Notes: generated from the sequence alone by a model not told the origin. Shown: positions 5,314 to 63,210, counted from the stretch's first letter. The stretch is 64,000 nt of DNA from Candidatus Dojkabacteria bacterium UBA2022 (GCA_002335495.1 DDBW01000006.1:72-64071); one strand, 5' to 3'. Numbers and translations: made by a program.

Positions 5314-5367
5314 TAATATATTGAAAAAATATTATTATATTGATATCATCTACAGATTTACAGCCGT

Positions 5368-5443
5368 GGATGTGTAGCTCAACTGGTAGAGCAAGCGGCT
5401 CTTAACCGTTAGGTTCAGGGTTCGAGTCCCTGCACATCCACCA
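5368..5443 (+). tRNA. tRNA-Lys (anticodon CTT), CCA encoded
   Basis: Cloverleaf folded by hand: acceptor GGATGTG/CACATCC, anticodon stem AGCGG/CCGTT, loop CTCTTAA, T-arm CAGGG-TTCGAGT-CCCTG, 3' ACCA. Confidence 0.9.
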
Positions 5444-5527
5444 TTCTCATATTGACCTCATCTTATTTTATAAAATGCAAAGAGACCCTTACAGGCCTCT
5501 TCACATTTATATACTTTGTAACCTTAG

Positions 5528-5974
5528 TTACTTAGTAATCTTTATCTCTTTTGCTTTTACTTCCTCAGCCTTTGGCATTTTTATTGTAAGAACCCCGTTC
5601 TCCATCTTAGCCTCTGCCTTATCTGAATCTATCTTGCACGGAAGATTAAATCTCTGTTCGTATGATGATTCCATACTTCTATAGAAATACTTCTTTTTAT
5701 CATCACTCTTTTCTTCCTCTTTAGATGATGCAGATATTGTAAGGACTTCGTTGTCCAAGGATATTTTTACATCCTCCTCTTTAATTCCTGGAAGGGCCAT
5801 TTTAACGAATACCTCATTTCCTTCCTCCCACATATCAGCACTGAGGCTTTTTGATACAGATGGGGTTAGGGTGAAGAAGTCATCAAATGGAGATGTGAAA
5901 AAATCATCCATTATTGACCTGAATGGCCTGTAGATGACTCTGTTATCGTCGTTATTTCTTTTGATTATTTGCAT
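5528..5974 (-). CDS. Hsp20/alpha-crystallin small heat-shock protein
   Basis: 148 aa, alpha-crystallin domain (MALPGIKEEDVKISLDNEVLTI...GVLTIKMPK). Confidence 0.85.
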   Translation of the reverse strand: MQIIKRNNDDNRVIYRPFRSIMDDFFTSPFDDFFTLTPSVSKSLSADMWEEGNEVFVKMALPGIKEEDVKISLDNEVLTISASSKEEEKSDDKKKYFYRSMESSYEQRFNLPCKIDSDKAEAKMENGVLTIKMPKAEEVKAKEIKITK

Positions 5975-6016
5975 TGTATTTAAAAATGATAAATTAAATA
6001 CCGAAGGGATTACCTT

Positions 6017-6043
6017 CTAGCAAAGTATAGCTCCGAGTGCTAA
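6017..6043. promoter_or_regulatory. CIRCE-like inverted repeat (candidate HrcA operator) upstream of hsp20
   Basis: CTAGCAAAG-N9-GAGTGCTAA versus consensus TTAGCACTC-N9-GAGTGCTAA. Right half is perfect, left half 6/9, spacing exact. Lies 43 nt upstream of the hsp20 start. Confidence 0.45.
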
Positions 6044-6060
6044 TTTCTGTCAAGATGGAC

Positions 6061-7005
6061 TCAGAAGTTAAGGATTAACTCTGAGGTTATATAGACTGCA
6101 TATATAAAAAGGAGAATATAACCTTCTTTTCTGGTTATAGTCCTATCATTGATTACCATGAGGGAGAACATGAATATTGTGATTGATAGTAGAATTAAAG
6201 CGGGGATTAAGCTTGTGAAGTTAACAAGCGTAGTTGGTCGTATTAGGATAAGTAGTCCAAGCACCGCTGAGTTAAAGGTTGCACTGCCAATGAAGTTTCC
6301 TGCTGCCAGTTTACCCATATCACCATTCTTACTTCTAAGCATAATTACGATTTCTGGAAGGTTTGTTCCAATTCCCAGTACGAGCAATCCTATTATCAAA
6401 GGTGGGGTATTTAAGGCTTCTGCAAGTCCTAGGGCGGTTGAAACGGTTAGGTTTGCGCTAAGGATCAGTCCTGCTATTCCAAGAATTGATTTGATTAGAA
6501 GGGTGGATAGCTTTCTGTTGCTATGATTATTAGTAATTTCCCATACTTTACTCTTTGCGATTATATATACGACGAAGCCGGAGTACAGAGCGAGGAGGAA
6601 TATTCCTTCCATCCAGTCCATCCTACCGTCAATGAGTACAAGTATCTGTGCATAGATAATTGCTAAGGAGAATAGTACCTCTTTAGTACTATACATCCCT
6701 TTAAAAGGTAGCGATTTATTCTTGATTGCGCTTATCCCTATAACAAGGGTGAGTAGTATTATGGTTGCTCCCACAATATTTCCTACGGATAATCCCGAGT
6801 ATCCGCTTGAAGCTGCATTGATTGCTACGAAGGTTTCTGGAAGGGAAGAGGTCATTGCAAGAATTACAAAACCTATAAGGAAGGTGTTAACTCCAAGTCT
6901 TCGTGATATCCCAACGAAAGATGACTCTATAAGATCTGCTGATTTAACCAGAAGAAATATTAATACAAGAAGTGATCCTATTGTGGGCAGTATATCCATG
7001 TTCAA
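6061..7005 (-). CDS. Ca2+/Na+ (CaCA/YrbG-type) antiporter
   Basis: 314 aa polytopic. Two alpha-repeat regions: GNIVGATIILLTLVIGISAI and GTNLPEIVIML...GNFIGSATFN. Confidence 0.8.
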   Translation of the reverse strand: MNMDILPTIGSLLVLIFLLVKSADLIESSFVGISRRLGVNTFLIGFVILAMTSSLPETFVAINAASSGYSGLSVGNIVGATIILLTLVIGISAIKNKSLPFKGMYSTKEVLFSLAIIYAQILVLIDGRMDWMEGIFLLALYSGFVVYIIAKSKVWEITNNHSNRKLSTLLIKSILGIAGLILSANLTVSTALGLAEALNTPPLIIGLLVLGIGTNLPEIVIMLRSKNGDMGKLAAGNFIGSATFNSAVLGLLILIRPTTLVNFTSLIPALILLSITIFMFSLMVINDRTITRKEGYILLFIYAVYITSELILNF

Positions 7006-50377: not shown

Positions 50378-50467
50378 TATGATATTAAAAAATGTTATCT
50401 CTATATTGTTACATTAAATTATTGTTGGATGCAATTCTTTTTGGTAGAATACTCATGAAATCATTTA

Positions 50468-50553
50468 GCCGAGGTGGTGAAATTGGCAGACACGCTACCT
50501 TGAGGTGGTAGTGGGAGTTAAATCCCTTGCAGGTTCAAGTCCTGTCCTCGGCA
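50468..50553 (+). tRNA. tRNA-Leu (anticodon GAG), long variable arm, CCA not encoded
   Basis: GCCGAGG acceptor; anticodon loop TTGAGGT; T-arm AGGTTCAAGTCCT; close to canonical bacterial tRNA-Leu(GAG). Confidence 0.8.
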
Positions 50554-50580
50554 TATGTGTGGTATAATCTCACACTATTG

Positions 50581-50657
50581 GGGCGATTAGCTCAGCTGGT
50601 TAGAGCACCTCGTTTACACCGAGGGGGTCATAGGTTCGAATCCTATATCGCCCACCA
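50581..50657 (+). tRNA. tRNA-Val (anticodon TAC), CCA encoded
   Basis: GGGCGAT acceptor; anticodon stem CCTCG/CGAGG, loop TTTACAC; T-arm ATAGG-TTCGAAT-CCTAT. Confidence 0.9.
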
Positions 50658-52439
50658 TTTATCCTCGTCTACCCCGAAGCTCCGTTCAAGATCGTTCATA
50701 ATCTCGCTTGGTAATCTAAGTCTTATGTTCAATTTGTATGGAATCATTTGTCCTTTTTTCTGCCTTCCTGCAATGATATCCTTTTTTGTCACAGGTCTTG
50801 AAAAGACAATTATGTCATGAATAATCAATTGCAAGATATCTCTTAATTGTTCTCTGTCTTTGTACAAGTTTTCTAGCTCCTCTAGATACTTCTTTTTGAA
50901 GAGCTCAAATACTTTGTTATATCCTTCATCTATCGTCAGATCTGCCAATCTAGATTCAAGTTCATCATAATCAGCTTTATTCTTTTTATATAGTTTATCT
51001 TCTTCATCCATTTGCTCTGTAAATTGGTTGTCAGATAGATGCCCATTTTTATGTTGAAACTTTATGCTATCTATAGTTCTGCTGTGACTATTTATTAGCC
51101 TTTTAAGAACCGATAATCTCTTATTTAACATCTCTTTTTCAAGTCTGCGAGATTCTAACTTTAGTTGATGGTTATATACATCTCTCGGATTTCGTATAAG
51201 CTTTTTTAGGAAATCAACAACATACTCCTCAATGCCGTAAGCTGGAAGAGGAAGGCAACTACAGTGGATAGAACTATGCTTGGGACTTTTCCTTTTACAT
51301 TTGTAATAGTAAGAATACTTTCCAGTCCCTTTATTAACTAGCTTTCTTTCTCCCACCCAGTTATGTGGTTGCATGTCAATTTCAGGATTGTAACAATTTG
51401 CACATCTTAATAATCCCCTTAGTAAATAAATACTATCACTATGCATTCCTTGATCTCTACGAGTTATTTCGTCTTTGAGTAACTTCTCCTGTACAGCTAC
51501 AAAAGTCGGTTTATCAATAATTGCATCATGTATGTGTTCGGATAGTACCCTTTCTTTATCCTTACCCTTCTTCTTTGAGTACCAATACTCACCCATATAT
51601 ATCTTGTTTCTCAGAATATGCTTAATGACATTTGAGTCCCAAAAGTATGGTTTATTAACTTTTCTTCTTTTCCCTCTATATTTCTCATGCATCTCAGCAG
51701 AAACACTTGGAGACGGAACTTTATGTTGCATTAACCAATCAGCGATAGCCTGTCTACTTGAGTTTTCCCATAAATACATGTTAAAGATTTGTCTAATATA
51801 GTTAGCTTCCTCTTCTAGTATTACTAACTTTTTATCTAGGTCCTTCTTGTATCCATAAGGAGCATGTGACCCCATAAATACACCTTCTTTAGATGCAGAG
51901 GCTTTACCTGTATGAGTTCTTTCCATGATATTTTCAAGCTCAAGTTCTGCGATGACTCCTATAATCCCTAAAACTGCCTTTCCGAAAGGGTTAGTGGTAT
52001 CAATACTCTCATTTGCAGAAATAAACTCAATGTCTTTCTCGTCAAAATAATCAATTATTTCAAGAAGAACTTTTAACCTACGAGCAAATCTGTCAATTTT
52101 GTAGACAGCAACAACATCAAACGGTTTTTGTAAACCTTCTGTATTATCTATATCCGAAATCATTCTCCTGAAAGCAACTCTCTCATCCATAGGTAGAGTT
52201 CCACTCGCACCCTCATCTATATAGATATATTGGTCGTCTATTACATTTCCCTTCTCATCCATCCCTCCGGCATAGACATATCTATCCTTTCCTTCAATAG
52301 TTTTCCCTTTAGCCTTTATAAGATTTAGAAGTGTCTCTTTTTGCATCGGAATGCCGAACTTTTCTACTTGTTCATCGGTTGAAACCCTTATATACAAGGC
52401 AACTCTTTTAACATTTTCTTGGTCAAATCTGTTTTGCAT
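50643..52439 (-). CDS. Large serine recombinase (resolvase-recombinase-zinc-ribbon-coiled-coil integrase)
   Basis: ALYIRVSTDEQ catalytic Ser region; recombinase domain; Cys-cluster zinc ribbon (CANCYN...CKRK...HCSC); last 5 codons (KWWAI*) are antisense to the tRNA-Val acceptor/CCA. Confidence 0.85.
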   Translation of the reverse strand: MQNRFDQENVKRVALYIRVSTDEQVEKFGIPMQKETLLNLIKAKGKTIEGKDRYVYAGGMDEKGNVIDDQYIYIDEGASGTLPMDERVAFRRMISDIDNTEGLQKPFDVVAVYKIDRFARRLKVLLEIIDYFDEKDIEFISANESIDTTNPFGKAVLGIIGVIAELELENIMERTHTGKASASKEGVFMGSHAPYGYKKDLDKKLVILEEEANYIRQIFNMYLWENSSRQAIADWLMQHKVPSPSVSAEMHEKYRGKRRKVNKPYFWDSNVIKHILRNKIYMGEYWYSKKKGKDKERVLSEHIHDAIIDKPTFVAVQEKLLKDEITRRDQGMHSDSIYLLRGLLRCANCYNPEIDMQPHNWVGERKLVNKGTGKYSYYYKCKRKSPKHSSIHCSCLPLPAYGIEEYVVDFLKKLIRNPRDVYNHQLKLESRRLEKEMLNKRLSVLKRLINSHSRTIDSIKFQHKNGHLSDNQFTEQMDEEDKLYKKNKADYDELESRLADLTIDEGYNKVFELFKKKYLEELENLYKDREQLRDILQLIIHDIIVFSRPVTKKDIIAGRQKKGQMIPYKLNIRLRLPSEIMNDLERSFGVDEDKWWAI

Positions 52440-52475
52440 CTTTAATACAATGACTTCTCCCCGAAGTATATATAA

Positions 52476-52868
52476 TTATTTCTTTCCTCTGGTTTTCATC
52501 AATAGGGTATGAAGTAGTCTTTTATCATTTTCTTCAATTGAAGTTACAACTACCTCCATCTCCAATACTTTATTGTTACTTTCTACTTTGAGCTTTTTAT
52601 TTACCTTTTTGTAAAGTAACTTCCCATTGGAATCAGTAGCCTTTGCATTATCAACATAGTCAGGAAGTACTCCAAACATACTTTCCTTGCCCTTCCAATC
52701 CGATGATTCTATCCAATGTGTAAGATCCATTTCTTTTTGGGAAGTAATTTCAATATAGATATACTCTCCATTATTGTCTTTAATTGCCTTCATTGGATAT
52801 TGGGAGTTTTTTGGGGGAGAATCGTGTACTTTTGAGAAAAGTTGTTTTATTTCGCTTCTTGTTTTCAT
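52476..52868 (-). CDS. Hypothetical protein
   Basis: ORF only. Confidence 0.3.
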   Translation of the reverse strand: MKTRSEIKQLFSKVHDSPPKNSQYPMKAIKDNNGEYIYIEITSQKEMDLTHWIESSDWKGKESMFGVLPDYVDNAKATDSNGKLLYKKVNKKLKVESNNKVLEMEVVVTSIEENDKRLLHTLLMKTRGKK

Positions 52869-52990
52869 GAATATATATTACTTGACGGAGTGTCAACATG
52901 CAATGCACCACGAAGTCCATTATCTGCTGGAGGTTGGTGATACAACATAATTATATATTCAGTTTCCGGGTAACTATGGTATATTTACAT

Positions 52991-53593
52991 ATGGCTACTG
53001 CCCGTCAAATAAAAGCTATAGAAAAATTATCAGATTTTATCAGAAACACAAAAGGTACAAAGATTCCTTTCAAAACACTTGGAGAAATACTCCGAGAAGC
53101 AGGTTACTCTGATAGTGTTTCTAAATCCCCTCAAAGGGTAACTGAGAGAAAGGGATGGAATGAGTTAATGAGTGAATACTTTCCGGAGAAAGATTTAATT
53201 GACTTGCACAAACGAATATTAAATAAGTCTGAGTCGTTCAGGTATAAAGATAAAGTCGTTAAAACAAATCAGCCACATTCGGATGCAAAATATGCCTTAG
53301 ATATGTACTACAAATTGAAAGGAGCATACAAGTACGATCCTGAAAAAGTTGCTTATCAAAAACCACATCCTGGCTTTGAGTTTTTCCAAACGGATATAGC
53401 ATGTGAGTTCTGGTTGCATAACAGATATTTCAGAAACTTTCTAAAAGCTAAAGAATTGAATGTTCCAATGACACATCCTGATGCAGGAAGAGACCTGGAT
53501 CATATAGTGATTAGAGGATATGCAGAGGATTACTCTTACGAAGATGTTGTTCAAATGTTCATTGAGAAATATGAAAGAGGTGAAAGGGATTGA
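52991..53593 (+). CDS. Hypothetical protein with N-terminal HTH-like segment (terminase-small-subunit-like?)
   Basis: Internal ATG (MATARQIKAIEKL...GEILREAGYSDSVSKSPQRV) of ORF 52898..53593; weak resemblance only. Confidence 0.3.
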   Translation: MATARQIKAIEKLSDFIRNTKGTKIPFKTLGEILREAGYSDSVSKSPQRVTERKGWNELMSEYFPEKDLIDLHKRILNKSESFRYKDKVVKTNQPHSDAKYALDMYYKLKGAYKYDPEKVAYQKPHPGFEFFQTDIACEFWLHNRYFRNFLKAKELNVPMTHPDAGRDLDHIVIRGYAEDYSYEDVVQMFIEKYERGERD

Positions 53594-53598
53594 AAATC

Positions 53599-54243
53599 TT
53601 AGGGTTTTAGAAATAGATCAGCAAGAACATATGTTCTACTAAATGACTTTTGCCCTTCTTTCGTTTTTAAGACAATCTCAACATCAATCTCAGGAGTTTC
53701 TTCGCTATAAACTTTAGTGTCATATATTTTTCTATCCGATTCCTCCCTAAGTGCCAAAGTTGAAAATACTCTAATCCATTTTTCAAAATGTTCAGAAGTA
53801 TTAGCATTAACTTTAACCGGTAGGTTCAGTCTATTACTCGCACTGCCTTTTATTTTCCCGTACCAATCCAACTTCCTACCATTGATAATAATTCTTTCAA
53901 TGTATATATCGTAATCACTGTAATTATGAATATAGTAGGGAATCTTATACTCAGTTTCGTTTGTTCGTGAGTATGATACAAAACTTGTTCCTTTCCTTAT
54001 CTGTTCGTATTCAACTTCAATATCAAATATTTTATATCGCAAATAAACTTTGTATGTGGAGTAAAATAGAAAAATAAAAGCAGAAAACAGGAGGATTAGG
54101 TTACTGTATTTTTGGACTAACAATGAGTACACAGAAGCACTCATCCCACTAAAAAGTATTACATACTGAATCCAATCAACCCCGTCCTTCCAAAATATCA
54201 AAACTTCGGAGAGATATTTCAAAAACTTTTGATAATTCTTCAT
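53599..54243 (-). CDS. Hypothetical 2-TM membrane protein
   Basis: ORF; two N-terminal hydrophobic helices. Confidence 0.4.
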   Translation of the reverse strand: MKNYQKFLKYLSEVLIFWKDGVDWIQYVILFSGMSASVYSLLVQKYSNLILLFSAFIFLFYSTYKVYLRYKIFDIEVEYEQIRKGTSFVSYSRTNETEYKIPYYIHNYSDYDIYIERIIINGRKLDWYGKIKGSASNRLNLPVKVNANTSEHFEKWIRVFSTLALREESDRKIYDTKVYSEETPEIDVEIVLKTKEGQKSFSRTYVLADLFLKP

Positions 54244-54279
54244 CTGTTGGATTGTACTCTAAAAGGTCTTTTAGAACAA

Positions 54280-54495
54280 TTATAATCCTTCGGTCAGTTT
54301 ACTGACTGTAATTCCAATAGCCTTTGCAATACTGTAGACAACTGATAGGGAGGGACTAACCGTTCCTCTTTCAATTCTACCTATATAATTACTACTCACA
54401 TTTGCCTTAAATGCTAACTTCTCTTGTGTTAATCCTGCCTTAGTTCTTGCTTTTCTAAGTAAAGCACCAAACTTTTTCTCTATTTGATTTGCCAT
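54280..54495 (-). CDS. XRE-family HTH transcriptional regulator (71 aa; candidate island repressor)
   Basis: LRKARTKAGLTQEKLAFKANVSSNYIGRIERG helix-turn-helix. Confidence 0.75.
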   Translation of the reverse strand: MANQIEKKFGALLRKARTKAGLTQEKLAFKANVSSNYIGRIERGTVSPSLSVVYSIAKAIGITVSKLTEGL

Positions 54496-54584
54496 ATCTA
54501 AAGATTATGCAATCACAGCCCTATAGACAACGAGCTATCTACACGGTACAATCTGCATGGCTAAGTTAAATAAATGCAGTTAAG

Positions 54585-54827
54585 ATGGATATATTTCTAA
54601 CAATTCTCAAGTGGGTTATTGGATTGATAATTCCGTTAATAGTTAGATATTTAGTCATTAAAAAATCTGTTACAAAATGGGTTGCAATTGGGATACTTGT
54701 TGTAAATTGGTTCATTTGTGCCTTCCTTTACTTTTCACTCCTTGAATCCATGGATGTTATGGCTGATGTTGGAGTACCAATTTTTGTGATTATTTCATTT
54801 GCAGGGTATTCAATTCTTACCAATTAA
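54585..54827 (+). CDS. Small 2-TM membrane protein
   Basis: ORF, divergent from the XRE gene. Confidence 0.35.
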   Translation: MDIFLTILKWVIGLIIPLIVRYLVIKKSVTKWVAIGILVVNWFICAFLYFSLLESMDVMADVGVPIFVIISFAGYSILTN

Positions 54828-54830
54828 AGT

Positions 54831-55394
54831 ATGAAATGGTTTTGGGTTATATTAACAACTATCTTGCTATCAATCCTTTCCGGAGCATTCTACTGGTTTG
54901 CATATAGACCATATGAGATCAAAAGGGATTGTTCGGTCGTAAGCGAAATTAGTAAAGAAATAAGGGAAATTACAACTCAAGATGTACACGAAAGTATCAG
55001 ATTGAATAATCTTTGTAATCAATTCACTGAAAGATATGCAAAAACTTACTACAATTGTTTACAGGAAAAGAAGAAAAACTATATTAAGACAAGTACAGAA
55101 GATTCAGAATTATGGAAATCGTGCGATGAAATAGAAAAAGTATGCAGGAAGGAATTAAATAAAGAAACAAGCAACAAATACGACTTCCTATTCAGTAGAT
55201 TGACTCAACCTACATGTGAACGAGAAGATCAGACAAAAAAGAATCGTTTCTACGATTACTACTACGAAAACGGGATTTACTGTAACGAAAGCTTCCCTGT
55301 ACTTAAAGAAAGAGATGGCGAACAAGAAAAGACCCTAAAAAGAGATGCAACTAACGAAGAGTATCAAAAGTGCCTTAGAAACAATGGACTATAG
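54831..55394 (+). CDS. Hypothetical protein with N-terminal TM
   Basis: ORF; Cys- and charge-rich. Confidence 0.35.
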   Translation: MKWFWVILTTILLSILSGAFYWFAYRPYEIKRDCSVVSEISKEIREITTQDVHESIRLNNLCNQFTERYAKTYYNCLQEKKKNYIKTSTEDSELWKSCDEIEKVCRKELNKETSNKYDFLFSRLTQPTCEREDQTKKNRFYDYYYENGIYCNESFPVLKERDGEQEKTLKRDATNEEYQKCLRNNGL

Positions 55395-55439
55395 GGATAT
55401 TTAGGTATAAAATCGTTAATAAACTTTTATCAAATTACT

Positions 55440-56423
55440 GTGGCAGTAACAAAGTGTCCAAAATGCGATCATTCACTTGAAGTAGATACACCCGGTAAGT
55501 ATAAATGCCCTGAATGTAAAAGCCTTTTTACATACGAAGGGAAAGACATTCCTAGAAAAGCAGAGAAAATCTCTGACAAGAAATCCTCAAATGTAGGATG
55601 TGGGACAATAATTATTATCTTTCTCGCATTAGGTGTTATTGGAGCATTTATTTCTGCTGTACAAGAAGCCCTTACTCCTGCAAGTTTTACCCTGAATGGA
55701 AGGGATGAGAGAGTCGCATCTACACCTACAACTACATTAACTTTTGAATGTGTAAAGATTGATTCTGTTAAAATAAACGATACTCTTTTGAGAGAAAGTG
55801 AGAAAGAGGGTTTATGCGATACAGGTTATGAAATATCCTTGAAGGACGGTAAAAACGAATATAAGGTACAGGCACTTGGAGATGATAAAACCTTTCAGGA
55901 AACCGTAACAATTTCATTTGATAAAAAGGCTTACGATAAAGCACAGGCAGAAATCGCTAAAAAGAAGAAAGAAGCAGAGGCGAAAAAGAAAGCGGAAGAG
56001 GAAGCTAAACTAAATGCACTTGCAAAAGATTATTGCTCACAAAGAAAAAGCGATATTAGAAAGTATCCAACACTAAAAATTGATGGCTCAAGCTATATTA
56101 TGGAGTTTAATACCGCAAAACAAGGGAGATACTTAACCCAGACAGACTGCAAAAATAGAATAACTCAATTGCTCAAGTTAGCTGAAAAGGATGGGACTGT
56201 TATTTCAGATAGTAGAATGAAAGACATAATCCAGAAGAAACATTGGATTGGAATGAGGGACTATCAATTTGTTATCTCGGTAGGTAATCCTGACGACATT
56301 AACAGTTCCAACTATGGTTCGTACAAGAGTGACCAGTATGTATACCACAAAGATTCATATGGAATAAGTGCATATTATGTCTATTTTGATGATGGAAAAC
56401 TTTCAAGTACTCAAGACTTTTGA
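55440..56423 (+). CDS. Membrane protein: N-terminal zinc ribbon, TM helix, extracytoplasmic coiled-coil and unknown C-terminal domain
   Basis: CPKCDHSLEVDTPGKYKCPECKSLF; TM GCGTIIIIFLALGVIGAFISAV; KKKEAEAKKKAEEEAK coiled-coil. Confidence 0.5.
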   Translation: MAVTKCPKCDHSLEVDTPGKYKCPECKSLFTYEGKDIPRKAEKISDKKSSNVGCGTIIIIFLALGVIGAFISAVQEALTPASFTLNGRDERVASTPTTTLTFECVKIDSVKINDTLLRESEKEGLCDTGYEISLKDGKNEYKVQALGDDKTFQETVTISFDKKAYDKAQAEIAKKKKEAEAKKKAEEEAKLNALAKDYCSQRKSDIRKYPTLKIDGSSYIMEFNTAKQGRYLTQTDCKNRITQLLKLAEKDGTVISDSRMKDIIQKKHWIGMRDYQFVISVGNPDDINSSNYGSYKSDQYVYHKDSYGISAYYVYFDDGKLSSTQDF

Positions 56424-57841
56424 TGAATATGAAAAGGATCTCTTGTCCACAATGTAATCAGACTCTTAATATAGAAAAAGAAGGTGTATATAAATGTCCC
56501 GACTGCCAAAGTACCTTTGAATATACAAAAAAGAAAGTAAATCTCTTGGAAAAGGGAAACGGTAAAACATTATCTACTCAGGTAGTTACTTACTCATTAT
56601 GGGTACTTTCCTTATTAGGAATACTCTTTTCCTTTGTGGTTTTAGCTACAAGTTTATTTGGAGGGTTTTTAGTACTACTTTCAGCTATTCTTATCATGCC
56701 TCCTATAAGGAATCTATATTCACAGAGATTGAAGGTCAGATACCTACATGCACTAATCATTTCGTTTATCTTTTTTATAGTTGGTTTGGGATACATGATG
56801 AATGTATATGTAAATAGTGATGAATATAAGCAGTCAGTTGCACAACAAGAGTCGGACAAGAAACTAGAATCAGAAAGACAAAAGAGATTAGAAGCAGAGA
56901 GAATAGCAAATGAAGAAAAGAAAGAGCGAGAAAAGGCAGAAGAACTTGCAAAAAAAGAAAAAGAGGAACGAGAGAAGTTGGAGAGGCTTATTGCAGAAGC
57001 ACAAGCAATAAATGAAGACTATCCAGAAGAAAAGGATGGAGTAAAGACAGATGTAAAGGGTACACAAGATGCAAATATAAGGTTAATTAATGAAACTGAA
57101 ACAATTTCAGATAAAGAAACAAACGAAGAGAAAACACTAACAAAGCTACTTGATGTTATTGAAGTGGTAGATGGTGACACAATAAAAGTCTCCGAACTTG
57201 GTACATTAAGACTTATTGGCATTGATACTCCAGAAACAGTAGATCCTAGAAAACCAGTACAATGCTTTGGGAAAGAAGCATCAGATAAAGCAAAATCTTT
57301 GTTGAGTGGTAAAAAGGTTAGATTGGAGTTTGATACCTCACAAGGAAGACTTGATAAATACGGAAGGACACTTGCTTATGTATACCGTGAAGATGGATTA
57401 TTTTTCAATAAAGAGATGATTAAGCAGGGCTTTGCACATGAATACACATATTCAACCCCATACAAGTACCAAAGTGAGTTTAAGAAGGCTCAGAGCGAAG
57501 CACAGGAAGCTAAGAGTGGGCTGTGGGGTAGTGCATGTAAGTGTGAGAAGGGAGAGGAAGTATCCAAGAGTTGTACCGCATGTAACCAATTGACAGTAAA
57601 GAAATACAATTGGGATTGCAGTACATATACAGAGAAAGTTTCAAGTAGCTCATGTTCTTACAAATGTTCAACTACAACTCCGGTAGCACCTAAACCATCT
57701 TCTCCATATACATGTAATTGTAGTAAAACTTGCTCACAAATAACTAGCTGTGCCGAAGCTCAATATCAATTAAAGACCTGTGGTTGTTCTGCTAGAGATG
57801 GAGATGATGATGGAATAGCTTGTGACTCTATGTGTCAGTAA
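56420..57841 (+). CDS. Membrane-anchored nuclease: zinc ribbon, 2 TM, coiled-coil, staphylococcal-nuclease (SNase/thermonuclease) domain, C-terminal Excalibur Ca-binding domain
   Basis: CPQCNQ...CPDCQSTF; LIGIDTPETVDPRKPVQCFGKEASDKAK...LDKYGRTLAYVY SNase motifs; C-terminal CAEAQYQLKTCGCSARDGDDDGIACDSMCQ Excalibur-like; start overlaps the previous gene by 4 nt. Confidence 0.7.
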   Translation: MMNMKRISCPQCNQTLNIEKEGVYKCPDCQSTFEYTKKKVNLLEKGNGKTLSTQVVTYSLWVLSLLGILFSFVVLATSLFGGFLVLLSAILIMPPIRNLYSQRLKVRYLHALIISFIFFIVGLGYMMNVYVNSDEYKQSVAQQESDKKLESERQKRLEAERIANEEKKEREKAEELAKKEKEEREKLERLIAEAQAINEDYPEEKDGVKTDVKGTQDANIRLINETETISDKETNEEKTLTKLLDVIEVVDGDTIKVSELGTLRLIGIDTPETVDPRKPVQCFGKEASDKAKSLLSGKKVRLEFDTSQGRLDKYGRTLAYVYREDGLFFNKEMIKQGFAHEYTYSTPYKYQSEFKKAQSEAQEAKSGLWGSACKCEKGEEVSKSCTACNQLTVKKYNWDCSTYTEKVSSSSCSYKCSTTTPVAPKPSSPYTCNCSKTCSQITSCAEAQYQLKTCGCSARDGDDDGIACDSMCQ

Positions 57842-57901
57842 GTAGTTGATACATTGTTATGAGGTAATTGCTTTAAAGCTCAAAATAAATATAATGAATG
57901 T

Positions 57902-59044
57902 ATGGAAACCCCTTTGGTGAACCCAATAGTCTTAAAATGGGCGAGAGAGAAGAACGGCTTCACAATACAGCAAGCCTCAAAGAAATGTGGTGTTACTGAA
58001 AGTACCTATCTTTCTTGGGAAGAAGGGAAGGTTGAGATTCCAATAAGGAAACTGCCTGTTTTTGCGAAAGTCTTCAAATATACATCTGCAATTTTTTTGT
58101 TGGATGTTATACCAGAAGAGAAGTATCCGATTGAGTTTAGAAACTTCTTTATTACATACGGAAATATAGGTAGAGAACTCAATTTAGCCATTAGATCTGC
58201 ACAATATGTACAATCAATCTTGAAAGAGTTGTCTGAATACTCTGACAACAAGTTCGTGAAAAGAATATCCGAGTTGGGAGAAAAGTCTAAGAAATTTGAA
58301 GAAATTTCCACGATCCTTGAAGAATATCTAAATCTTAATTACTCTCTTCTTCACGGGCAAAGGGATCAATTCAAGGTTTTCAAGAGGTGGAAGGAATATG
58401 TTGAATCTCAGGGAATCTCCGTTATGGAGAGAGGATTTCCACAGAATGAGGCGAGGGGCTTCTTGTTATACGATGAAATAGCCCCGGTTATTGTATTGAA
58501 TACAAAAGATTCTATTCATTCAAAAATATTCTCGTTAATACATGAGCTTGCACATGTCGTCTATAGACAATCAAGCATTGATAATGAAATAACCCTGACA
58601 GAAAACAAAAAAGGTGAAATTGAAACATTGTGTAATCAAATTGCAAGTGAAATTCTTGTTCCCCCAACTATACTTGAAGAAAGAATTATCTCTGTTCAGT
58701 CCTCTCCTTTAGAGGTAGTTATTTCGGACTTGAGCAAATATTTTTGTGTTAGTAGGGAAGTTATTGCTTATAAATTATTAGATTTGAAATACTATACAAG
58801 GTCAGTAATTGAACAATATATAGAAGAAGTAAGGCAGGAATCATTGCTATTCAAATCTAAGAAGAATAATGGAGGAGACTACTACAAAAATGTGATAGTT
58901 AACAATAGCCCATTGTATTTATTTACTGTTTTTGATGGGCTAAACAATAATAAAATCACTTTTGGTGAAGTGGTGTCAATTCTTAAAGTGAAATCAGAAA
59001 ATATAACCAAATTGGAAAGAGTTCTCCTAGACTACTATGAATAA
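57902..59044 (+). CDS. XRE-HTH fused to ImmA/IrrE-family (COG2856) zinc metallopeptidase domain
   Basis: N-terminal HTH (WAREKNGFTIQQASKKCGVTESTYLSWEEG); HEXXH motif SLIHELAHVVY. Confidence 0.7.
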   Translation: METPLVNPIVLKWAREKNGFTIQQASKKCGVTESTYLSWEEGKVEIPIRKLPVFAKVFKYTSAIFLLDVIPEEKYPIEFRNFFITYGNIGRELNLAIRSAQYVQSILKELSEYSDNKFVKRISELGEKSKKFEEISTILEEYLNLNYSLLHGQRDQFKVFKRWKEYVESQGISVMERGFPQNEARGFLLYDEIAPVIVLNTKDSIHSKIFSLIHELAHVVYRQSSIDNEITLTENKKGEIETLCNQIASEILVPPTILEERIISVQSSPLEVVISDLSKYFCVSREVIAYKLLDLKYYTRSVIEQYIEEVRQESLLFKSKKNNGGDYYKNVIVNNSPLYLFTVFDGLNNNKITFGEVVSILKVKSENITKLERVLLDYYE

Positions 59045-59501
59045 ATATTTACTTGATACAAATGCCTATATAGAAATTGATAGAGGTGCATCGGTTGATA
59101 TGTTTCCTACTACACTGTGGGCTAGTATTGGAGATTCAATAAAGAAGGGAGAGATTTTATTACTTAAGGCCGTATATAACGAAGTTACAAAGTCTAGTGA
59201 TGGATTAAGTAGCTGGATGAAAGGTTATTCAGATTTCATATACGATCACCTCGCGGATATTGATTTAATAGCAAGAGCAAAGATAATTGTAAATAAATAT
59301 CCAACAATAGTTGATCCCAAAAATATCAATGATCAAGCAGATCCATATATAATTGCTTGTGCTTATGAAAAGTCACTATGTATTGTAACGAATGAGGGTA
59401 GAAAGCATAGTAAGATAAATATCCCGTATATCTGTGATGAGTACAATATTAATTGTATTCAGTCATATGAGTTTATGAGAAACACTGGATGGAAGTTCTA
59501 G
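59037..59501 (+). CDS. DUF4411/PIN-like domain protein (predicted nuclease partner of the ImmA/IrrE-HTH gene)
   Basis: YLLDTNAYIEI N-terminal Asp motif; further acidic positions (QADPYIIACA, VTNEG); 8-nt overlap with the upstream gene. Confidence 0.5.
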   Translation: MNKYLLDTNAYIEIDRGASVDMFPTTLWASIGDSIKKGEILLLKAVYNEVTKSSDGLSSWMKGYSDFIYDHLADIDLIARAKIIVNKYPTIVDPKNINDQADPYIIACAYEKSLCIVTNEGRKHSKINIPYICDEYNINCIQSYEFMRNTGWKF

Positions 59502-59706
59502 CCAACCATAATTGTTACTTATAGTAAGTAAAAGAACCGCATTACTGGGCTTTTTTTGGGGCAAGTAAACAAATTGTTTAACATCTCACGAGTCATATAT
59601 ATTATTTTTATCCTGCTTTGGGGTTCTTGCTTTTTGGGGAAATTGATATTCGCCCTTATTTCTCATAGTCTTAAGCCATCTTTTCCCTTCGCGACAATAC
59701 AATTTA

Positions 59707-59735
59707 TTGTAAATCATAACCATATGCCCTATAAT
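59707..59735 (+). promoter_or_regulatory. Sigma70-like promoter (TTGTAA-17-TATAAT) for the graspetide precursor
   Basis: Perfect -10, good -35, 17-nt spacer, followed ~30 nt later by the AAAGGAGGTGAGG SD. Confidence 0.5.
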
Positions 59736-59767
59736 ATTCTATCTCAACCCGAAAGGAGGTGAGGTTA

Positions 59768-59863
59768 ATGTTTGCAGTGAACTTTTTCACTCGGATTGAG
59801 TCCGCTGATGCCAAAGGAACCGGCACAGTAGACAAATCCACAGGTCAGACTGACTTTGACTAG
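59768..59863 (+). CDS. Graspetide (omega-ester RiPP, microviridin-like) precursor peptide, 31 aa
   Basis: ATG 7 nt after a strong SD; MFAVNFFTRIESADAKGTGTVDKSTGQTDFD; leader FAVNFFTRI resembles the PFFARFL leader motif; Thr/Ser + Asp/Lys-rich C-terminal core; below the 60-aa ORF-track cutoff. Confidence 0.55.
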   Translation: MFAVNFFTRIESADAKGTGTVDKSTGQTDFD

Positions 59864-59885
59864 TCGTCAACCTGCAAGCAAGAAA

Positions 59886-59941
59886 GGAGATGTAGAGAAT
59901 CAATACCGTCATCAATATGACAACCCTTTCTCTACATCTCC
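59886..59941 (+). terminator. Perfect 14-bp stem hairpin between precursor and ligase (attenuator or partial terminator)
   Basis: GGAGATGTAGAGAA-N28-TTCTCTACATCTCC followed by CCAGCTCTTTC. Confidence 0.4.
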
Positions 59942-59972
59942 CCAGCTCTTTCAAATCGTTTAAGGAGACACC

Positions 59973-60908
59973 ATGCACACAGTACTAGTAATAACATCGT
60001 TGCCTGACCCCCATGTGGAAATGGTCAAGGAGCATCTTTCTGCGGATGTAGAAATGGTGATTTTTGATCCAAAGGCTCTCGGTATTTCTGGAAGTTTTAC
60101 TATTTCAGAATCAGGAGAGCTGCTTTCACTTGGTGGACAGAGTCCTGTCTCAGTCTGGTACAGAAAGCCGAAGTATTTATCAGAGTCAGAGATAGAAAAA
60201 CTTAGAGTCCCGAAAGATTATCTTCCTGCAATTGCTTCATTGCATGAAGAAGGGTTCTCACTAATCCAAGAAGCATACCCAGATAGTCTGTGGGTATCTA
60301 AACCAGCTGCAATCAAGAGAGCTTCCAACAAGCTTCTGCAATTCTTGACGGCAAAGAAGATTGGTTTCGCAATTCCGGAAACAATCTTTTCAACAGATCC
60401 AAAAGCAATTGATGAGTTACGAAGTAAGGTGGGAGACATTGTGATGAAACCATTGGGGAGACCATTTGCAAATGTAAATGGAGTACCGTCGTGGTTTTTC
60501 GCAACAGTCATCCCTGCAAGCCAGACCATGAATTATGAGGGTCTTGGATTAACACCCATGATCTTTCAGCAATTAATTCATAAGGCTTATGATTTGAGGG
60601 TAACAGTTATCGGTAACAAAGTCTTTGGATGTAAGATAGTTTCAGAGAAAATTGATTGGCGAGTAGCTCAATCAGAACCTGAGACATTGTATACTCCACT
60701 TGACCTTGATAAGGAAACTACCGAAAAATGTTTACTCATGAATCAACAGCTTGGTCTGAACTTTGGAGCCTACGACTTCGCATACTCCAATGAAGGAGAA
60801 CTTGTTTTTCTTGAGATAAATCCAAACGGACAGTGGGGATTTGTTGAGAATAAAACAGGATTACCTTTATCAAAGGCAATGGCGGAGGTGCTTATTGGTT
60901 CTTCTTAG
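59973..60908 (+). CDS. ATP-grasp RiPP maturase (graspetide/microviridin-type ligase, MdnC/MvdD-like)
   Basis: Pre-ATP-grasp N-domain (MHTVLVITSLPD), WYRKP, and FLEINPNGQWGFVENKTGLPLSKAMAEVL C-terminal motif characteristic of this ligase family; GC higher than surroundings. Confidence 0.75.
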   Translation: MHTVLVITSLPDPHVEMVKEHLSADVEMVIFDPKALGISGSFTISESGELLSLGGQSPVSVWYRKPKYLSESEIEKLRVPKDYLPAIASLHEEGFSLIQEAYPDSLWVSKPAAIKRASNKLLQFLTAKKIGFAIPETIFSTDPKAIDELRSKVGDIVMKPLGRPFANVNGVPSWFFATVIPASQTMNYEGLGLTPMIFQQLIHKAYDLRVTVIGNKVFGCKIVSEKIDWRVAQSEPETLYTPLDLDKETTEKCLLMNQQLGLNFGAYDFAYSNEGELVFLEINPNGQWGFVENKTGLPLSKAMAEVLIGSS

Positions 60909-60944
60909 ATGTGCTGGAGGGTAGTTTTTTGGTAGAATACACCA

Positions 60945-61505
60945 ATGAAACAAAGCTACCCTCCAGTTACAACTAAAAGAGTGGATGTAAAGAAAATTGC
61001 TAAAAGATTAATCATGATGGCAAAGCGAGATCAAGAAGTAAGAGATAAATACTTTGCTCTGAATGATAAAAAGTATCTGGACGAAATGTGGAAGATTGAT
61101 GAAAAGAATCAAAGGGAGTTTAAGGAAATCTTTAGGCAAGTAGGTTTAATCACCTCAGAGTATGGATCAGAAGCACAAATGTCTGCTTTCTTGATCGTTC
61201 AACACATGTCTAGAGAAGAAGTGAAGTTTATGAAAAACTACCTTTCTCTAATGAAAAAGAATATTACAGGTTATCCACTCAATATTTATGCAATGTTAGT
61301 TGACAGAGTTAGAAATTGGGAAGGTAAAGACCAGTTATACGGGACTCAGTTTATGCCTGTAGAAGGGAAAGAAAACACCTACAAACTTAAAAAGCTATAC
61401 AAGTCTCATTTGGTAGAAAAGAGAAGAATGGAGTTAGGTTTAGAGCCTCTAGGAGAGTACATTAAGAAACTTCAGGAAGAGAGGGGAGTTACTTTAATAC
61501 TTTAG
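60945..61505 (+). CDS. Hypothetical protein
   Basis: ORF; start codon lies in the loop of an 11-bp stem (60914..60966). Confidence 0.35.
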   Translation: MKQSYPPVTTKRVDVKKIAKRLIMMAKRDQEVRDKYFALNDKKYLDEMWKIDEKNQREFKEIFRQVGLITSEYGSEAQMSAFLIVQHMSREEVKFMKNYLSLMKKNITGYPLNIYAMLVDRVRNWEGKDQLYGTQFMPVEGKENTYKLKKLYKSHLVEKRRMELGLEPLGEYIKKLQEERGVTLIL

Positions 61506-61617: not shown

Positions 61618-62043
61618 ATGACGCAAGAAATTGAAGAAGAAATAAAGGCACATATTGCATTAGGAATCATTTTGAATGAGAAAGGTGAAGTCCTTATTAT
61701 TCAGAGAATCAAGGAAGAAAAGGGGGCAGGTGAAGTTACCCTCAATTGGGCGTTTCCAGGTGGGAAAATTGAAGAAGGTGAAGATAGCGTAAGTACTTCT
61801 ATAAGGGAAGTATTGGAAGAGACAGGGTATTCAGTAAGCATTAGTAATGAAATTTCAGGAAGAAAACATCCTCAATTTCCAGTATATGTTCATTACATGG
61901 CAGGTGTTTTACTCTCATCTACCCAGCTTGATTACGACCAGTCTGAAATAAAAGAGGTTAAGTGGGTTAAACCTGAACAATTGAAAGATTACTTCTCAAC
62001 CGACTTTGACGAGAAGGTACAAGACAGCCTAGGGATTCACTAA
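61618..62043 (+). CDS. NUDIX hydrolase
   Basis: GGKIEEGEDSVSTSIREVLEETGY Nudix box. Confidence 0.7.
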   Translation: MTQEIEEEIKAHIALGIILNEKGEVLIIQRIKEEKGAGEVTLNWAFPGGKIEEGEDSVSTSIREVLEETGYSVSISNEISGRKHPQFPVYVHYMAGVLLSSTQLDYDQSEIKEVKWVKPEQLKDYFSTDFDEKVQDSLGIH

Positions 62044-62087: not shown

Positions 62088-62153
62088 GTAGTTAGTTTTA
62101 AGTTCCATGCTTTGAAGTGTCGCCCACCATTTTTCGTTCTCTACCCATAAATG
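62088..62153. repeat. att-like direct repeat A (degenerate tRNA-Val 3' end, gttttaagttccaTgct...gtcgcccaccattttt)
   Basis: 12-13 nt identical to the tRNA-Val terminus plus flank similarity; partner copy at 63148..63210. Confidence 0.45.
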
Positions 62154-62169
62154 ATTCTGTATTGTAATA

Positions 62170-63147
62170 TTGGATGAAATGTCAGAATCTTTAATTGAAA
62201 ACCGGCCACAAATACCTCAATCACTTGGTGAAACAGATTTGCGAAATTATTTATCTCAAAGGGATATTGTCCTTAGCGATGAGGAGTTGGAACACTGTAG
62301 ACTGATTGAAGTACCAGATGGGGTACCTATACTAATCATTGATCGTGAACACGATGAGTGGGAAGGCGGTGATGACCCGCTCCTGGCAAAATGTTTAGGC
62401 AGTCCTTCCTGCAAAGAATTTATCCCAGAATATTTTCTTCCCGACCTCAAAAGGGATGAGGATAAATACCCAGATTTTGTTAAAAAGCTTATGGGGTTCA
62501 GCGCTGATGATACAAACGCTGCATATGAGAAGAGGGGGGGATTCTTCTATTATCATGCACAAAAGTTTATGGGAGTGGAAGGAAAGAAAGTTTCTGTTGT
62601 TGATATTGCAAACACTGGCTTGTATGAAGCATATTTCAGCCTCTGGCCAGCAGTGTATTCGTTAACAGGCAGTGCATTACCACTTCCCCCAACACTTAAA
62701 ATCATCACAGTATTAGCGCCGTGGGTAATGCGGGCAATTAACTACATTGGTGATGGTCAAAAAGTAGGGGATCAAAAGACAAATGAAAACGGACGCGGTA
62801 TATATGACAAACGCCATATAAATAGCTATGAAAAAGCCATTTACGACATGGAAGATGCAAGACGAGTATATGCAGCAAGGGCGCTAGAGAAATTAAGTAA
62901 TGACAGGAAAAAACAATATCCAAATAATGATCAACTATTAGTGGCTGTATATCCTAAGGCGCATGCAATGAGAATAGCCAACTATTTAACCAATTTAAAT
63001 CCATCTACGGCAATTTCCACACAAGTCAAGAATCTCTTATACCGATACCCAGGCTTGGAATTTTCAACAAGAACATATGAGAAAAAGAAAAGCTATGGTA
63101 GCAAACCAGAGGGTTATTGGGATTTAGTTGAAAACGTTAAATTCTAA
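62170..63147 (+). CDS. Hypothetical protein (325 aa) in a cassette flanked by the A/B repeats
   Basis: ORF only. Confidence 0.4.
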   Translation: MDEMSESLIENRPQIPQSLGETDLRNYLSQRDIVLSDEELEHCRLIEVPDGVPILIIDREHDEWEGGDDPLLAKCLGSPSCKEFIPEYFLPDLKRDEDKYPDFVKKLMGFSADDTNAAYEKRGGFFYYHAQKFMGVEGKKVSVVDIANTGLYEAYFSLWPAVYSLTGSALPLPPTLKIITVLAPWVMRAINYIGDGQKVGDQKTNENGRGIYDKRHINSYEKAIYDMEDARRVYAARALEKLSNDRKKQYPNNDQLLVAVYPKAHAMRIANYLTNLNPSTAISTQVKNLLYRYPGLEFSTRTYEKKKSYGSKPEGYWDLVENVKF

Positions 63148-63210
63148 GAATCAAAATAACACCAGTTTTAAGTTCCAGGCTACTTTGTACTGCCCACCAT
63201 TTTTTAGAAA
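63148..63210. repeat. att-like direct repeat B (gttttaagttccaGgct...ctgcccaccatttttt)
   Basis: About 45-nt similarity to repeat A. Confidence 0.4.

Follow-up and report, generated by a model that had tools for sequence, protein, structure and literature searches.

A 64,000-nucleotide stretch of DNA from Candidatus Dojkabacteria bacterium UBA2022 (GCA_002335495.1 DDBW01000006.1:72-64071; hereafter the window) very probably contains a three-gene cassette for a graspetide, an omega-ester peptide that is made by the ribosome and modified after translation (RiPP). The three genes encode a precursor of 31 residues, an ATP-grasp macrocyclase and a DUF6624 protein, and the product would be a Thr-Asp ladder. 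The locus is real but fairly ordinary. The system, its host group and the association with DUF6624 are already known (Makarova et al. 2022, PMC8939145; Carter et al. 2026, PMC13097080). New, as far as the searched text of the two surveys goes, is a precursor family with a minimal N-terminal leader, to which a clean definition of the cassette as a unit of three genes is added.

A preliminary description of the same DNA had pointed to a promoter-like TTGTAA-N17-TATAAT, a Shine-Dalgarno (SD) sequence, a 31-codon open reading frame (ORF), a 14-bp inverted repeat and a 311-residue ligase with the motif FLEINPNGQW. All of these are where it placed them. Its central claim, a graspetide locus with a genuine 31-residue precursor, holds up as well: the ORF is conserved upstream of close orthologs of the ligase and shows the substitution pattern of a coding sequence.

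Precursor gene and macrocyclase

The precursor gene (MFAVNFFTRIESADAKGTGTVDKSTGQTDFD) lies on the plus strand at 59768-59863, from the ATG to the end of the stop codon. It is preceded by the very strong SD region GAAAGGAGGTGAGG (59751-59764, plus strand), read directly in the sequence, in which GAAAGGAGGTGAG is invariant in 7 aligned orthologs and nearly so in further orthologs. Upstream ORF scans find a 31-codon ORF directly before all 11 distinct full-length close orthologs of the ligase (53-77% ligase identity). The close orthologs with enough upstream DNA are L001/L081, L002/L169, L003, L004/L084, L005/L170, L009/L087, L161/L162, L163/L164 and L165, and the precursor is exactly 31 codons long in 10 distinct orthologous nucleotide sequences.

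Among these 10 nucleotide versions, 14 of the 31 columns vary at codon position 1, 15 at position 2 and 29 at position 3. Invariant residues are encoded by several synonymous codons (four for T18, three each for G26 and S12). Invariant or nearly invariant are M1, F2, A3, F7, [ED]11, S12, T18, [TS]20, [ST]25, G26, Q27, T28, D29, F30 and D31. The precursor peptide is under purifying selection.

The preliminary description called the precursor unannotated. This is correct for NCBI record DAOMYW010000002.1, where no gene is called between DUF4411 and the ligase, but not for the JGI/IMG gene calling, which lists the 31-residue peptide without naming the product; for some orthologs the gene call reads 'hypothetical protein'. 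The precursor models of Pfam and NCBIfam match neither the 31-mer nor the peptides of two more distant loci, L166 and L016, and for the 31-mer this counts against a graspetide precursor. The peptide of the L013 type has only sub-threshold matches in the two libraries (PF14408 at 0.029, TIGR04186 at 3.2). Relatives of the peptide were sought by exact cluster look-ups and by ORF scans of the loci of ligase homologs.

Upstream of the precursor gene lies a putative sigma-70-like promoter (TTGTAA-17-TATAAT; 59707-59735, plus strand). A promoter scan of the window finds 7 such sites, against 6.1 expected in shuffled sequence. Hence the hexamers by themselves prove nothing. In nine of ten close orthologs, however, the spacing to the precursor ATG is constant for a TATAAT or TAAAAT box and a TTGnnn box 17 nt further upstream, while the flanking DNA has diverged, which suggests that the two boxes function as a promoter. 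The exception is L161, where the cassette lies inside another operon.

The macrocyclase gene (59973-60908, plus strand) encodes the 311-residue protein with FLEINPNGQW, identified through profile, PDB sequence and fold matches. The best NCBIfam model is TIGR04187 (GRASP_SAV_5884, the actinobacterial SAV_5884 type), which matches over its full length (E = 1.1e-54; residues 3-307 to model positions 1-311), followed by MvdC (2.7e-44) and MvdD (2.2e-38). Models of primary metabolism are far behind: 1.2e-14 for the RimK family, 5e-9 for LysX and 3e-5 for GshB. The profile comparison that the preliminary description had proposed thus comes out on the side of the graspetide models.

What speaks against a simple family assignment is that the graspetide scores are low by the curators' own standards: 185.8 bits against a cut-off of 350 for TIGR04187, 151.6 against 425 for MvdC and 132.2 against 475 for MvdD. 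By the curated threshold, the ligase is not a member even of its best-matching model. Because all graspetide scores fall below the curated cut-offs, we regard the window ligase as a divergent relative that stands outside every named subfamily. The RimK family (54.3 bits, cut-off 143.4), LysX (35.7, cut-off 275.6) and GshB (22.9, cut-off 272) stay below their cut-offs too.

Structure and PDB sequences agree with the profiles. The significant matches in a PDB sequence search are all graspetide ligases (MdnB, AMdnB, MdnC, PruB, CdnC and PsnB; PruB is entry 9bou, whose identity is taken from the Foldseek description). The N-terminal domain is covered, with PruB aligning to residues 3-307 and PsnB to residues 4-308 of the window ligase. 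An AlphaFold 2 (AF2) model of the ligase has a predicted local distance difference test score (pLDDT) of 91.5. Its top Foldseek matches are PruB, CdnC, MdnC, AMdnB and PsnB, with template modelling (TM) scores of 0.73-0.85. RimK, LysX and ArgX come after these at 0.60-0.67, and the matches ranked above RimK (rank 33) are exclusively graspetide ligases. By sequence and by predicted structure, the window ligase belongs to the clade of RiPP macrocyclases with an N-terminal pre-ATP-grasp domain, as had been proposed. It thus escapes the refutation named in the preliminary description, a ligase that falls among enzymes of primary metabolism and has no leader-binding N-domain.

A protein identical to the window ligase is found in a metagenome-assembled genome (MAG; record DAOMYW010000002.1) of Candidatus Dojkabacteria (formerly WS6), which belongs to the candidate phyla radiation (CPR; Patescibacteria). 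About 15 protein clusters are 53-77% identical to the window ligase. Where their sources are named, the label is Dojkabacteria; two matching loci are labelled Saccharibacteria MAGs. After this group, identity drops to 35-41% (WWE3, Saccharibacteria, Microgenomates and others). The ligase of L166 is 41% identical to that of the window and L016, a 316-residue ligase from WWE3 RAAC2, is 37% identical. Homologs in Streptomyces and Kitasatospora are about 30% identical.

Leader, core and predicted product

The precursor can be divided into a minimal leader, MFAVNFF (residues 1-7), a linker and a predicted core from T18 to D31. In the window's family the leader consensus is MFAV[KN][YF]F and starts at Met1. 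The leader motif of microviridins is PFFARFL. Aligned to it residue by residue, MFAVKYF gives the pairs P/M, F/F, F/A, A/V, R/K, F/Y and L/F. The family leader also matches the signature 'Phhx(1,2)h' given for graspetide leaders by Makarova et al. (PMC8939145).

Precursors at other loci connect this short leader to longer ones. The L166 precursor MIPFGVDDLVVVAGSDATATSTTQDNGQTDFDFDDD (MIPFGVDDL...GQTDFDFDDD) bridges the MFAV-type and the PFGV-type leaders. Further away, the precursors of L016 and L018 read ...VVPFGAKYLKK...TNTGTGTSQPDADHD, and those of L013 and L019 read ...VVPFGVSFMQ...TRTHTHTGMGDSGQDSETDSD. Since L166 and the distant CPR precursors carry PFG leaders, we read MFAV[KN][YF]F as the leader motif PFG[AV]x[FYL][LM] shifted to the extreme N-terminus, with Met replacing Pro. 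The suggestion in the preliminary description that the leader is of the PFFARFL type is borne out by this link.

The preliminary description would have been refuted had homologs of the ligase lacked precursor-like peptides nearby, but candidates do occur there. In 54 of 101 homologous loci, a crude motif filter picks out a candidate precursor upstream of the ligase, with a PFG-type leader and a tail that is first Thr/Ser-rich and then Asp/Glu-rich. Candidates in WWE3, Saccharibacteria and Microgenomates hosts are located at L016 3753-3893, L018 3754-3894, L013 3774-3926, L019 3732-3929, L011 3799-3924 and L012 2582-2719 (for example MKSKRKPVKVVPFGAKYLKKVAMANKRSSSNTNTGTGTSQPDADHD).

In the window's family the core has T18-x-T20 on its N-side and D29-x-D31 on its C-side. 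T18, D29 and D31 are invariant, and position 20 is Ser in one ortholog. The preliminary description did not recognize this core from any characterized group. However, TxT...DxD matches the parallel Thr-Asp ladder of the fuscimiditide and amycolimiditide type. In the stem-loop graspetides fuscimiditide, amycolimiditide and albusimiditide, the Thr-Asp esters run 'sequence-wise parallel' at equal interstitial distances, a rule that foretold the structure of albusimiditide (bioRxiv 10.1101/2023.06.21.545981; PMC13001092). All four characterized graspimiditides are Thr-Asp stem-loop ladders (PMC13001092), and equal spacing has been shown for three of them (bioRxiv 10.1101/2023.06.21.545981).

By analogy, the window product would contain two nested esters, an inner one between T20 and D29 and an outer one between T18 and D31. 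This would be a bicyclic hairpin 36 Da lighter than the unmodified peptide. Its loop would comprise 8 residues, the last three being the invariant G-Q-T. The ligase would bind the minimal leader and activate Asp side-chain carboxylates as acyl phosphates, which the Thr hydroxyls would then attack.

The related precursors are consistent with such a ladder, because the numbers of alternating Thr and of alternating Asp or other acidic residues rise together. The window peptide has 2+2, L166 has 3 and at least 3, and L016 and L013 have 4 and 3-4 (tails TxTxTxT...DxDxD in L016 and THTHT...DxExDxD in L013). Compared to the window peptide, L166 has one Thr more (TxTxT) together with an extra Asp (DxDxD(DD)), which fits what the ladder model predicts.

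Two points weigh against the T18-D31/T20-D29 arrangement. Conservation alone suggests the cross-links, their number and their partners. Moreover, other conserved residues could join in: S12, S/T25 and T28 as donors, E/D11 as an acidic partner, or the free C-terminal carboxylate. A graspetide with different rings is thus quite possible, if on the whole unlikely. It could have a single ester, a third link between E/D11 and S12 or T8, T28 or S/T25 as donors, or a link from a side chain to the C-terminus at D31. For such rings it can be said that S12, [ST]25, T28 and [ED]11, too, show little or no variation, that for SsfA a link from a side chain to the C-terminus has been postulated (PMC13001092) and that large core variation occurs inside a single ligase branch (Makarova et al., PMC8939145). 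The joint increase of Thr and Asp across the related precursors and the uniform ladder topology of the four graspimiditides, equally spaced in three, argue for the nested ladder instead.

The DUF6624 gene and the stem-loop

The third gene of the cassette (60945-61505, plus strand) encodes a DUF6624 protein of 186 residues (Pfam PF20329, 3e-15). The preliminary description spoke of a minimal two-gene cluster. This count has to be raised to three genes, since a DUF6624 gene adjoins the ligase gene in all 11 distinct close orthologous loci examined; it does so in 8 more distant CPR loci as well. By tblastn, DUF6624 lies immediately beside the ligase in L010-L013, L016, L018 and L019 as well as in every close ortholog. 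Gene tables confirm the neighbour in L161-L166, L169 and L170, and in L166 it is convergent, on the opposite strand.

DUF6624 has been seen in graspetide loci before under another name. Its invariant residues are H87 within AFLIVQH, D120-R121, QLYGTQ at 130-135 and R160-R161, and the motifs VQH...DR...Q[LR]YGTQ also occur in the alignment 'Cluster23 and homologs' (PMC8939145). Because both alignments contain the same motifs, cluster 23 is DUF6624. In the more recent RODEO survey, DUF6624 is frequent in graspetide groups 18, 20, 23 and 42, and the authors flag it as a possible undiscovered class of biosynthetic enzyme (Carter et al. 2026, PMC13097080).

The AF2 model of the window protein is mostly helical (pLDDT 92.2), and searches of the PDB gave no informative structural or sequence match. 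Whereas Makarova et al. (PMC8939145) describe many cluster 23 members as lipoprotein-type, the window protein has no N-terminal hydrophobic segment or signal peptide. Many of the best-scoring relatives have 330-660 residues and two or three tandem domains, and others have N-terminal extensions of 30-130 residues.

DUF6624 may act on or with the peptide. Against this stands the size of the family: at E<=1e-3, a profile search of the full library brings up 11,477 cluster representatives (50% identity), whereas the published graspetide counts are 264 cluster 23 homologs (Makarova et al., PMC8939145) and 22-51 biosynthetic gene clusters (BGCs) per group (Carter et al., PMC13097080). Judged from these published counts rather than from genomic context, most members are probably found outside graspetide loci, and the role of DUF6624 here need not be biosynthetic.

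DUF6624 could therefore be an outsider, a neighbour kept by chance or operon inertia beside a functional unit of only two genes. We consider this distinctly unlikely. Besides the size of the family, it is the locus L006, which keeps an intact DUF6624 after losing the precursor along with the ligase gene's 5' half, and the opposite orientation in L166 that favour an outsider. However, the two genes stay adjacent in every close ortholog although the cassette is flanked by unrelated genes: dnaX and ybaB-recR in L161/L162, a tRNA synthetase in L163, MazG and an S41-like peptidase in L165, and rplS and tRNA-Gly in L170. The pair recurs side by side in distant WWE3, Saccharibacteria and Microgenomates loci, and the association appears in two independent surveys (cluster 23 in PMC8939145; the four groups in PMC13097080). 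Because the adjacency survives a complete turnover of the flanks, we rank a partner or tailoring role for DUF6624 above coincidence.

The junction between the ligase and DUF6624 genes is variable among orthologs, with a spacing of 3 nt in L169 and an overlap in L163. In the window, a 15-bp inverted repeat (93% complementary, 60914-60966) spans the gap between the ligase stop codon and DUF6624. The DUF6624 start codon (60945) is in its loop and the 3' arm is inside the coding region. The gene has no obvious SD.

Between the precursor and the ligase gene lies a conserved stem-loop with a perfect 14-bp stem and a 28-nt loop (59886-59941, plus strand; arms 59886-59899 and 59928-59941), detected as an inverted repeat, by folding and by covariation. 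For ten orthologous intergenic regions, RNAalifold gives a helix of 13 pairs, of which 9 are changed on both sides (compensatory). The first nine pairs have no broken cell, and 95.8% of all cells are paired. The covariation score is 0.415. Shuffles score 0.220, with none of 500 as high as the real alignment, and slid registers no more than 0.156. The window copy folds at -30.9 kcal/mol (z = -5.0). The stem-loop structure is selected for. No Rfam family matches the region. Distant loci have strong stem-loops of unrelated sequence at the same place, followed by U-tracts in L007, L016 and L018.

The preliminary description took the hairpin for an attenuator that sets the stoichiometry of the two proteins. 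The covariation confirms a conserved hairpin, and a role as a dosage-setting partial terminator, a stabilizer or a translational damper is plausible. The stem-loop would then lower the expression of the ligase and DUF6624 relative to the precursor, through partial termination, through stabilization of the transcript 3' end, or together with a CUCUUU that pairs with the ligase SD. Such pairing is predicted by RNAalifold: an invariant CTCTTT (59946-59951) can pair with the ligase SD AAGGAG (59962-59967; whole element 59946-59967, plus strand), a possible SD-sequestering helix that keeps 6 of 6 pairs in all 10 sequences.

Neither route is free of objections. A terminator scan found no site here, and no canonical U-tract adjoins the window stem, whose 3' flank is CCAGCUCUUUCAAAU in the window and CCAGCUCUUUCA in the window's family. 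In the CTCTTT/SD helix no pair is changed on both sides, so that covariation neither supports nor tests it.

A short ORF followed by a hairpin is also what one would expect of a regulatory upstream ORF, a leader peptide that controls the ligase together with the hairpin while the true substrate is encoded elsewhere. The position directly upstream of the stem-loop resembles attenuation leaders, and the 5' untranslated region and the sequence after the hairpin are highly conserved. Nevertheless, we think a regulatory peptide very unlikely. Selection acts on the amino acids of the C-terminal GQTDFD and of TxT, not on runs of rare codons. Homologous loci encode longer peptides with PFG leaders and substrate-like Thr...Asp cores, and the leader aligns to recognition motifs of the PFFARFL type.

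It is scarcely credible that the ATP-grasp protein is a ligase of primary metabolism or ribosomal modification (RimK, LysX or GshB-like) and the small ORF a coincidence: although several sources label homologs 'glutathione synthase/RimK-type ligase' and Pfam finds only a RimK domain in the protein, itself sub-threshold (20.3 bits, cut-off 21), the graspetide models outdo RimK or LysX by 40 orders of magnitude, the structural matches above RimK are all graspetide ligases with PruB and PsnB aligning through the N-terminal domain, and the small ORF is kept alongside the ligase across 41-77% ligase identity.

Genomic context and known systems

The precursor, macrocyclase and DUF6624 genes were described as riding on an integrated island. 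A recombinase-bearing segment does adjoin the cassette, but the cassette was there before it. This can be seen by comparison with L169, a contig from Dojkabacteria in synteny with the window (tRNA-Asp, tsaC/E, tsaD, enolase, tRNA-Leu and tRNA-Val). In L169 homology to the cassette begins 86 nt after tRNA-Val: L169 7431-7648 matches window 50440-50659, and L169 7735-9516 matches window 59702-61498. Hence, by this comparison, window 50660-59701 (9.0 kb) is a later insertion between tRNA-Val and an already resident cassette, not the carrier of the cassette. The recombinase island as a vehicle is rejected.

The inserted region, also delimited as 50581-59701, starts with a large serine recombinase of 598 residues (50643-52439, minus strand), the 3' end of which overlaps tRNA-Val. 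It further contains a membrane-anchored SNase/Excalibur protein (56420-57841), a pair formed by a helix-turn-helix (HTH)-Peptidase_M78 (RmrA-like) protein and DUF4411 (57902-59501), an HTH protein and several hypothetical proteins. Degenerate copies of the tRNA-Val 3' end (50648-50674) lie downstream of the cassette, at 62122 and 63192 (spans 62094-62146 and 63164-63204). These copies, AGTTTTAAGTTCCA[TG]GCT...GCCCACCATTTTT, flank an ORF of 325 residues at 62170-63147. In the 64-kb window GCCCACCA occurs at only these three tRNA-Val-type sites, and TTTAAGTTCCANGCT has 2 matches where 0.03 are expected. The copies look like att-site remnants of serial integrations at tRNA-Val. With two of them downstream, the area is a tRNA-linked variable region.

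Two other signs of transfer were considered and rejected. The elevated GC content noted in the preliminary description is real but slight (0.396 in the cassette compared to a window mean of 0.367, standard deviation 0.018; 96.6th percentile), and the excess is too small to serve as evidence of transfer. A phage-borne origin of the cassette is unsupported, as IMG/VR contains only distant homologs of the ligase (at most 32% identity).

In L161/L162 the whole cassette (4806-6537) sits between dnaX and ybaB-recR, without a recognizable promoter of its own and with no mobility genes nearby. dnaX and ybaB-recR usually adjoin. In the window, the gene directly downstream of the cassette encodes a NUDIX hydrolase (61618-62043) that matches the PADLOC candidate defence model PDC-S07 (2e-18). 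The NUDIX genes near the cassette in L166 and L170 are not close homologs of it: tblastn with the window NUDIX found no match there. The cassette encodes no protease or exporter, and no gene within about 10 kb on either side of it contains a methyltransferase domain.

The closest known system is Branch 2 of the CPR graspetide ligases. This branch comprises a WS6 ligase fragment and WWE3 ligases of 316 residues, and all of its loci carry cluster 23; the WS6 and WWE3 entries have no assigned precursor, and the authors suggested missed small ORFs (Makarova et al. 2022, PMC8939145). L006, one of the listed entries (LBWK01000001.1, candidate division WS6 GW2011_GWF2_39_15), is 86% identical to the C-terminal part of the window ligase (residues 171-310), and the adjacent DUF6624 has the cluster 23 motifs. 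We base the placement in Branch 2 on identities and motifs, no tree having been rebuilt. The difference lies in the precursor, which is identified here for the Dojkabacteria group, with candidates for WWE3 loci of the L016 type.

L006 itself is a damaged copy. At 3977-5121 the att-like repeat seen in the window runs, at ...CCCAC, straight into the interior of the ligase gene, at a point that corresponds to window 60517. Missing are the precursor and ~545 nt from the start of the ligase, while DUF6624 is intact (80% amino acid identity). The 126-residue 'ligase' listed in Branch 2 is thus explained by the truncation of the gene through fusion to the att-like repeat.

Group 42 of Carter et al. 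(2026, PMC13097080) has a similar architecture. It consists of candidate-phyla BGCs with a synthetase and DUF6624 (PF20329 in 18 of 22 BGCs), like the window in both architecture and hosts. However, its representative precursor, from Ca. Komeilibacteria (MKKNSTPKPLILDRLRQPIEDIYKGGEKAMEGFTTHGTPNDPDSGGTD), differs in its core and in its leader, which is also longer. Neither GQTDFD nor MFAVKYF was found in the searched parts of the supplementary text of PMC8939145, and neither GQTDFD nor 'Dojkabacteria' in those of PMC13097080. A literature text search found no paper that pairs 'graspetide' with 'Patescibacteria'.

The predicted product has its nearest counterparts elsewhere, among the stem-loop graspetides of Actinomycetota (fuscimiditide, amycolimiditide and albusimiditide; group 13, 'graspimiditides'). 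Like these, the window core appears to have equally spaced ladders of Thr on the N-side and Asp on the C-side, and the two-ester stem-loop predicted for it would resemble fuscimiditide. In contrast to the graspimiditide loci, the window locus lacks a PIMT-type O-methyltransferase, in whose place DUF6624 stands. Hence no aspartimide is expected in the window product. The window ligase is also only about 28-32% identical to Streptomyces homologs, and its leader is cut to about 7 residues.

To microviridin (MdnA with MdnB and MdnC) the likeness is one of ligase fold, with a pre-ATP-grasp domain in common (TM score 0.84 to MdnC, E = 5e-30 to MdnB). Unlike the microviridin system, the window has one ligase instead of two. 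It also lacks a conserved Lys that could form a lactam, and neither a GNAT nor an ABC transporter is present. Its core TGTVDKSTGQTDFD lacks the TxKxPSDx(E/D)(D/E) motif, and its ligase scores far below the MvdC and MvdD cut-offs.

A bolder reading goes beyond the three-gene cassette with a Thr-Asp ladder. The locus could be the smallest natural leader-dependent graspetide system (a 7-residue leader that begins at Met1, in a 31-residue precursor), in which DUF6624 is obligatory and the product mediates interactions of an episymbiont with its host or competitors. DUF6624 would then be indispensable, whether as a catalyst or as a partner; it might, for instance, tailor the peptide, trim the leader or serve the ligase as a chaperone. 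We regard this reading as doubtful. If true, it would provide a model of two enzymes and one peptide for assigning a function to a family with over 11,000 cluster representatives at 50% identity.

The general understanding of graspetides is unchanged by the three-gene cassette, and RiPPs in reduced CPR genomes have already been reported. What the cassette does is fill a gap. Most Branch 2 ligases lacked precursors, which were guessed to be small uncalled ORFs (PMC8939145), and the Dojkabacteria family shows exactly such ORFs. Applied to the WWE3, Saccharibacteria and Microgenomates relatives, the same ORF scan turns up candidate precursors with PFG leaders. A precursor of 31 residues, whose leader is roughly the recognition motif alone, lends itself to work on leader recognition and is so short that it can be synthesized chemically. 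Finally, the three-gene unit offers a tractable entry to DUF6624, a large family that two surveys have flagged in graspetide clusters.

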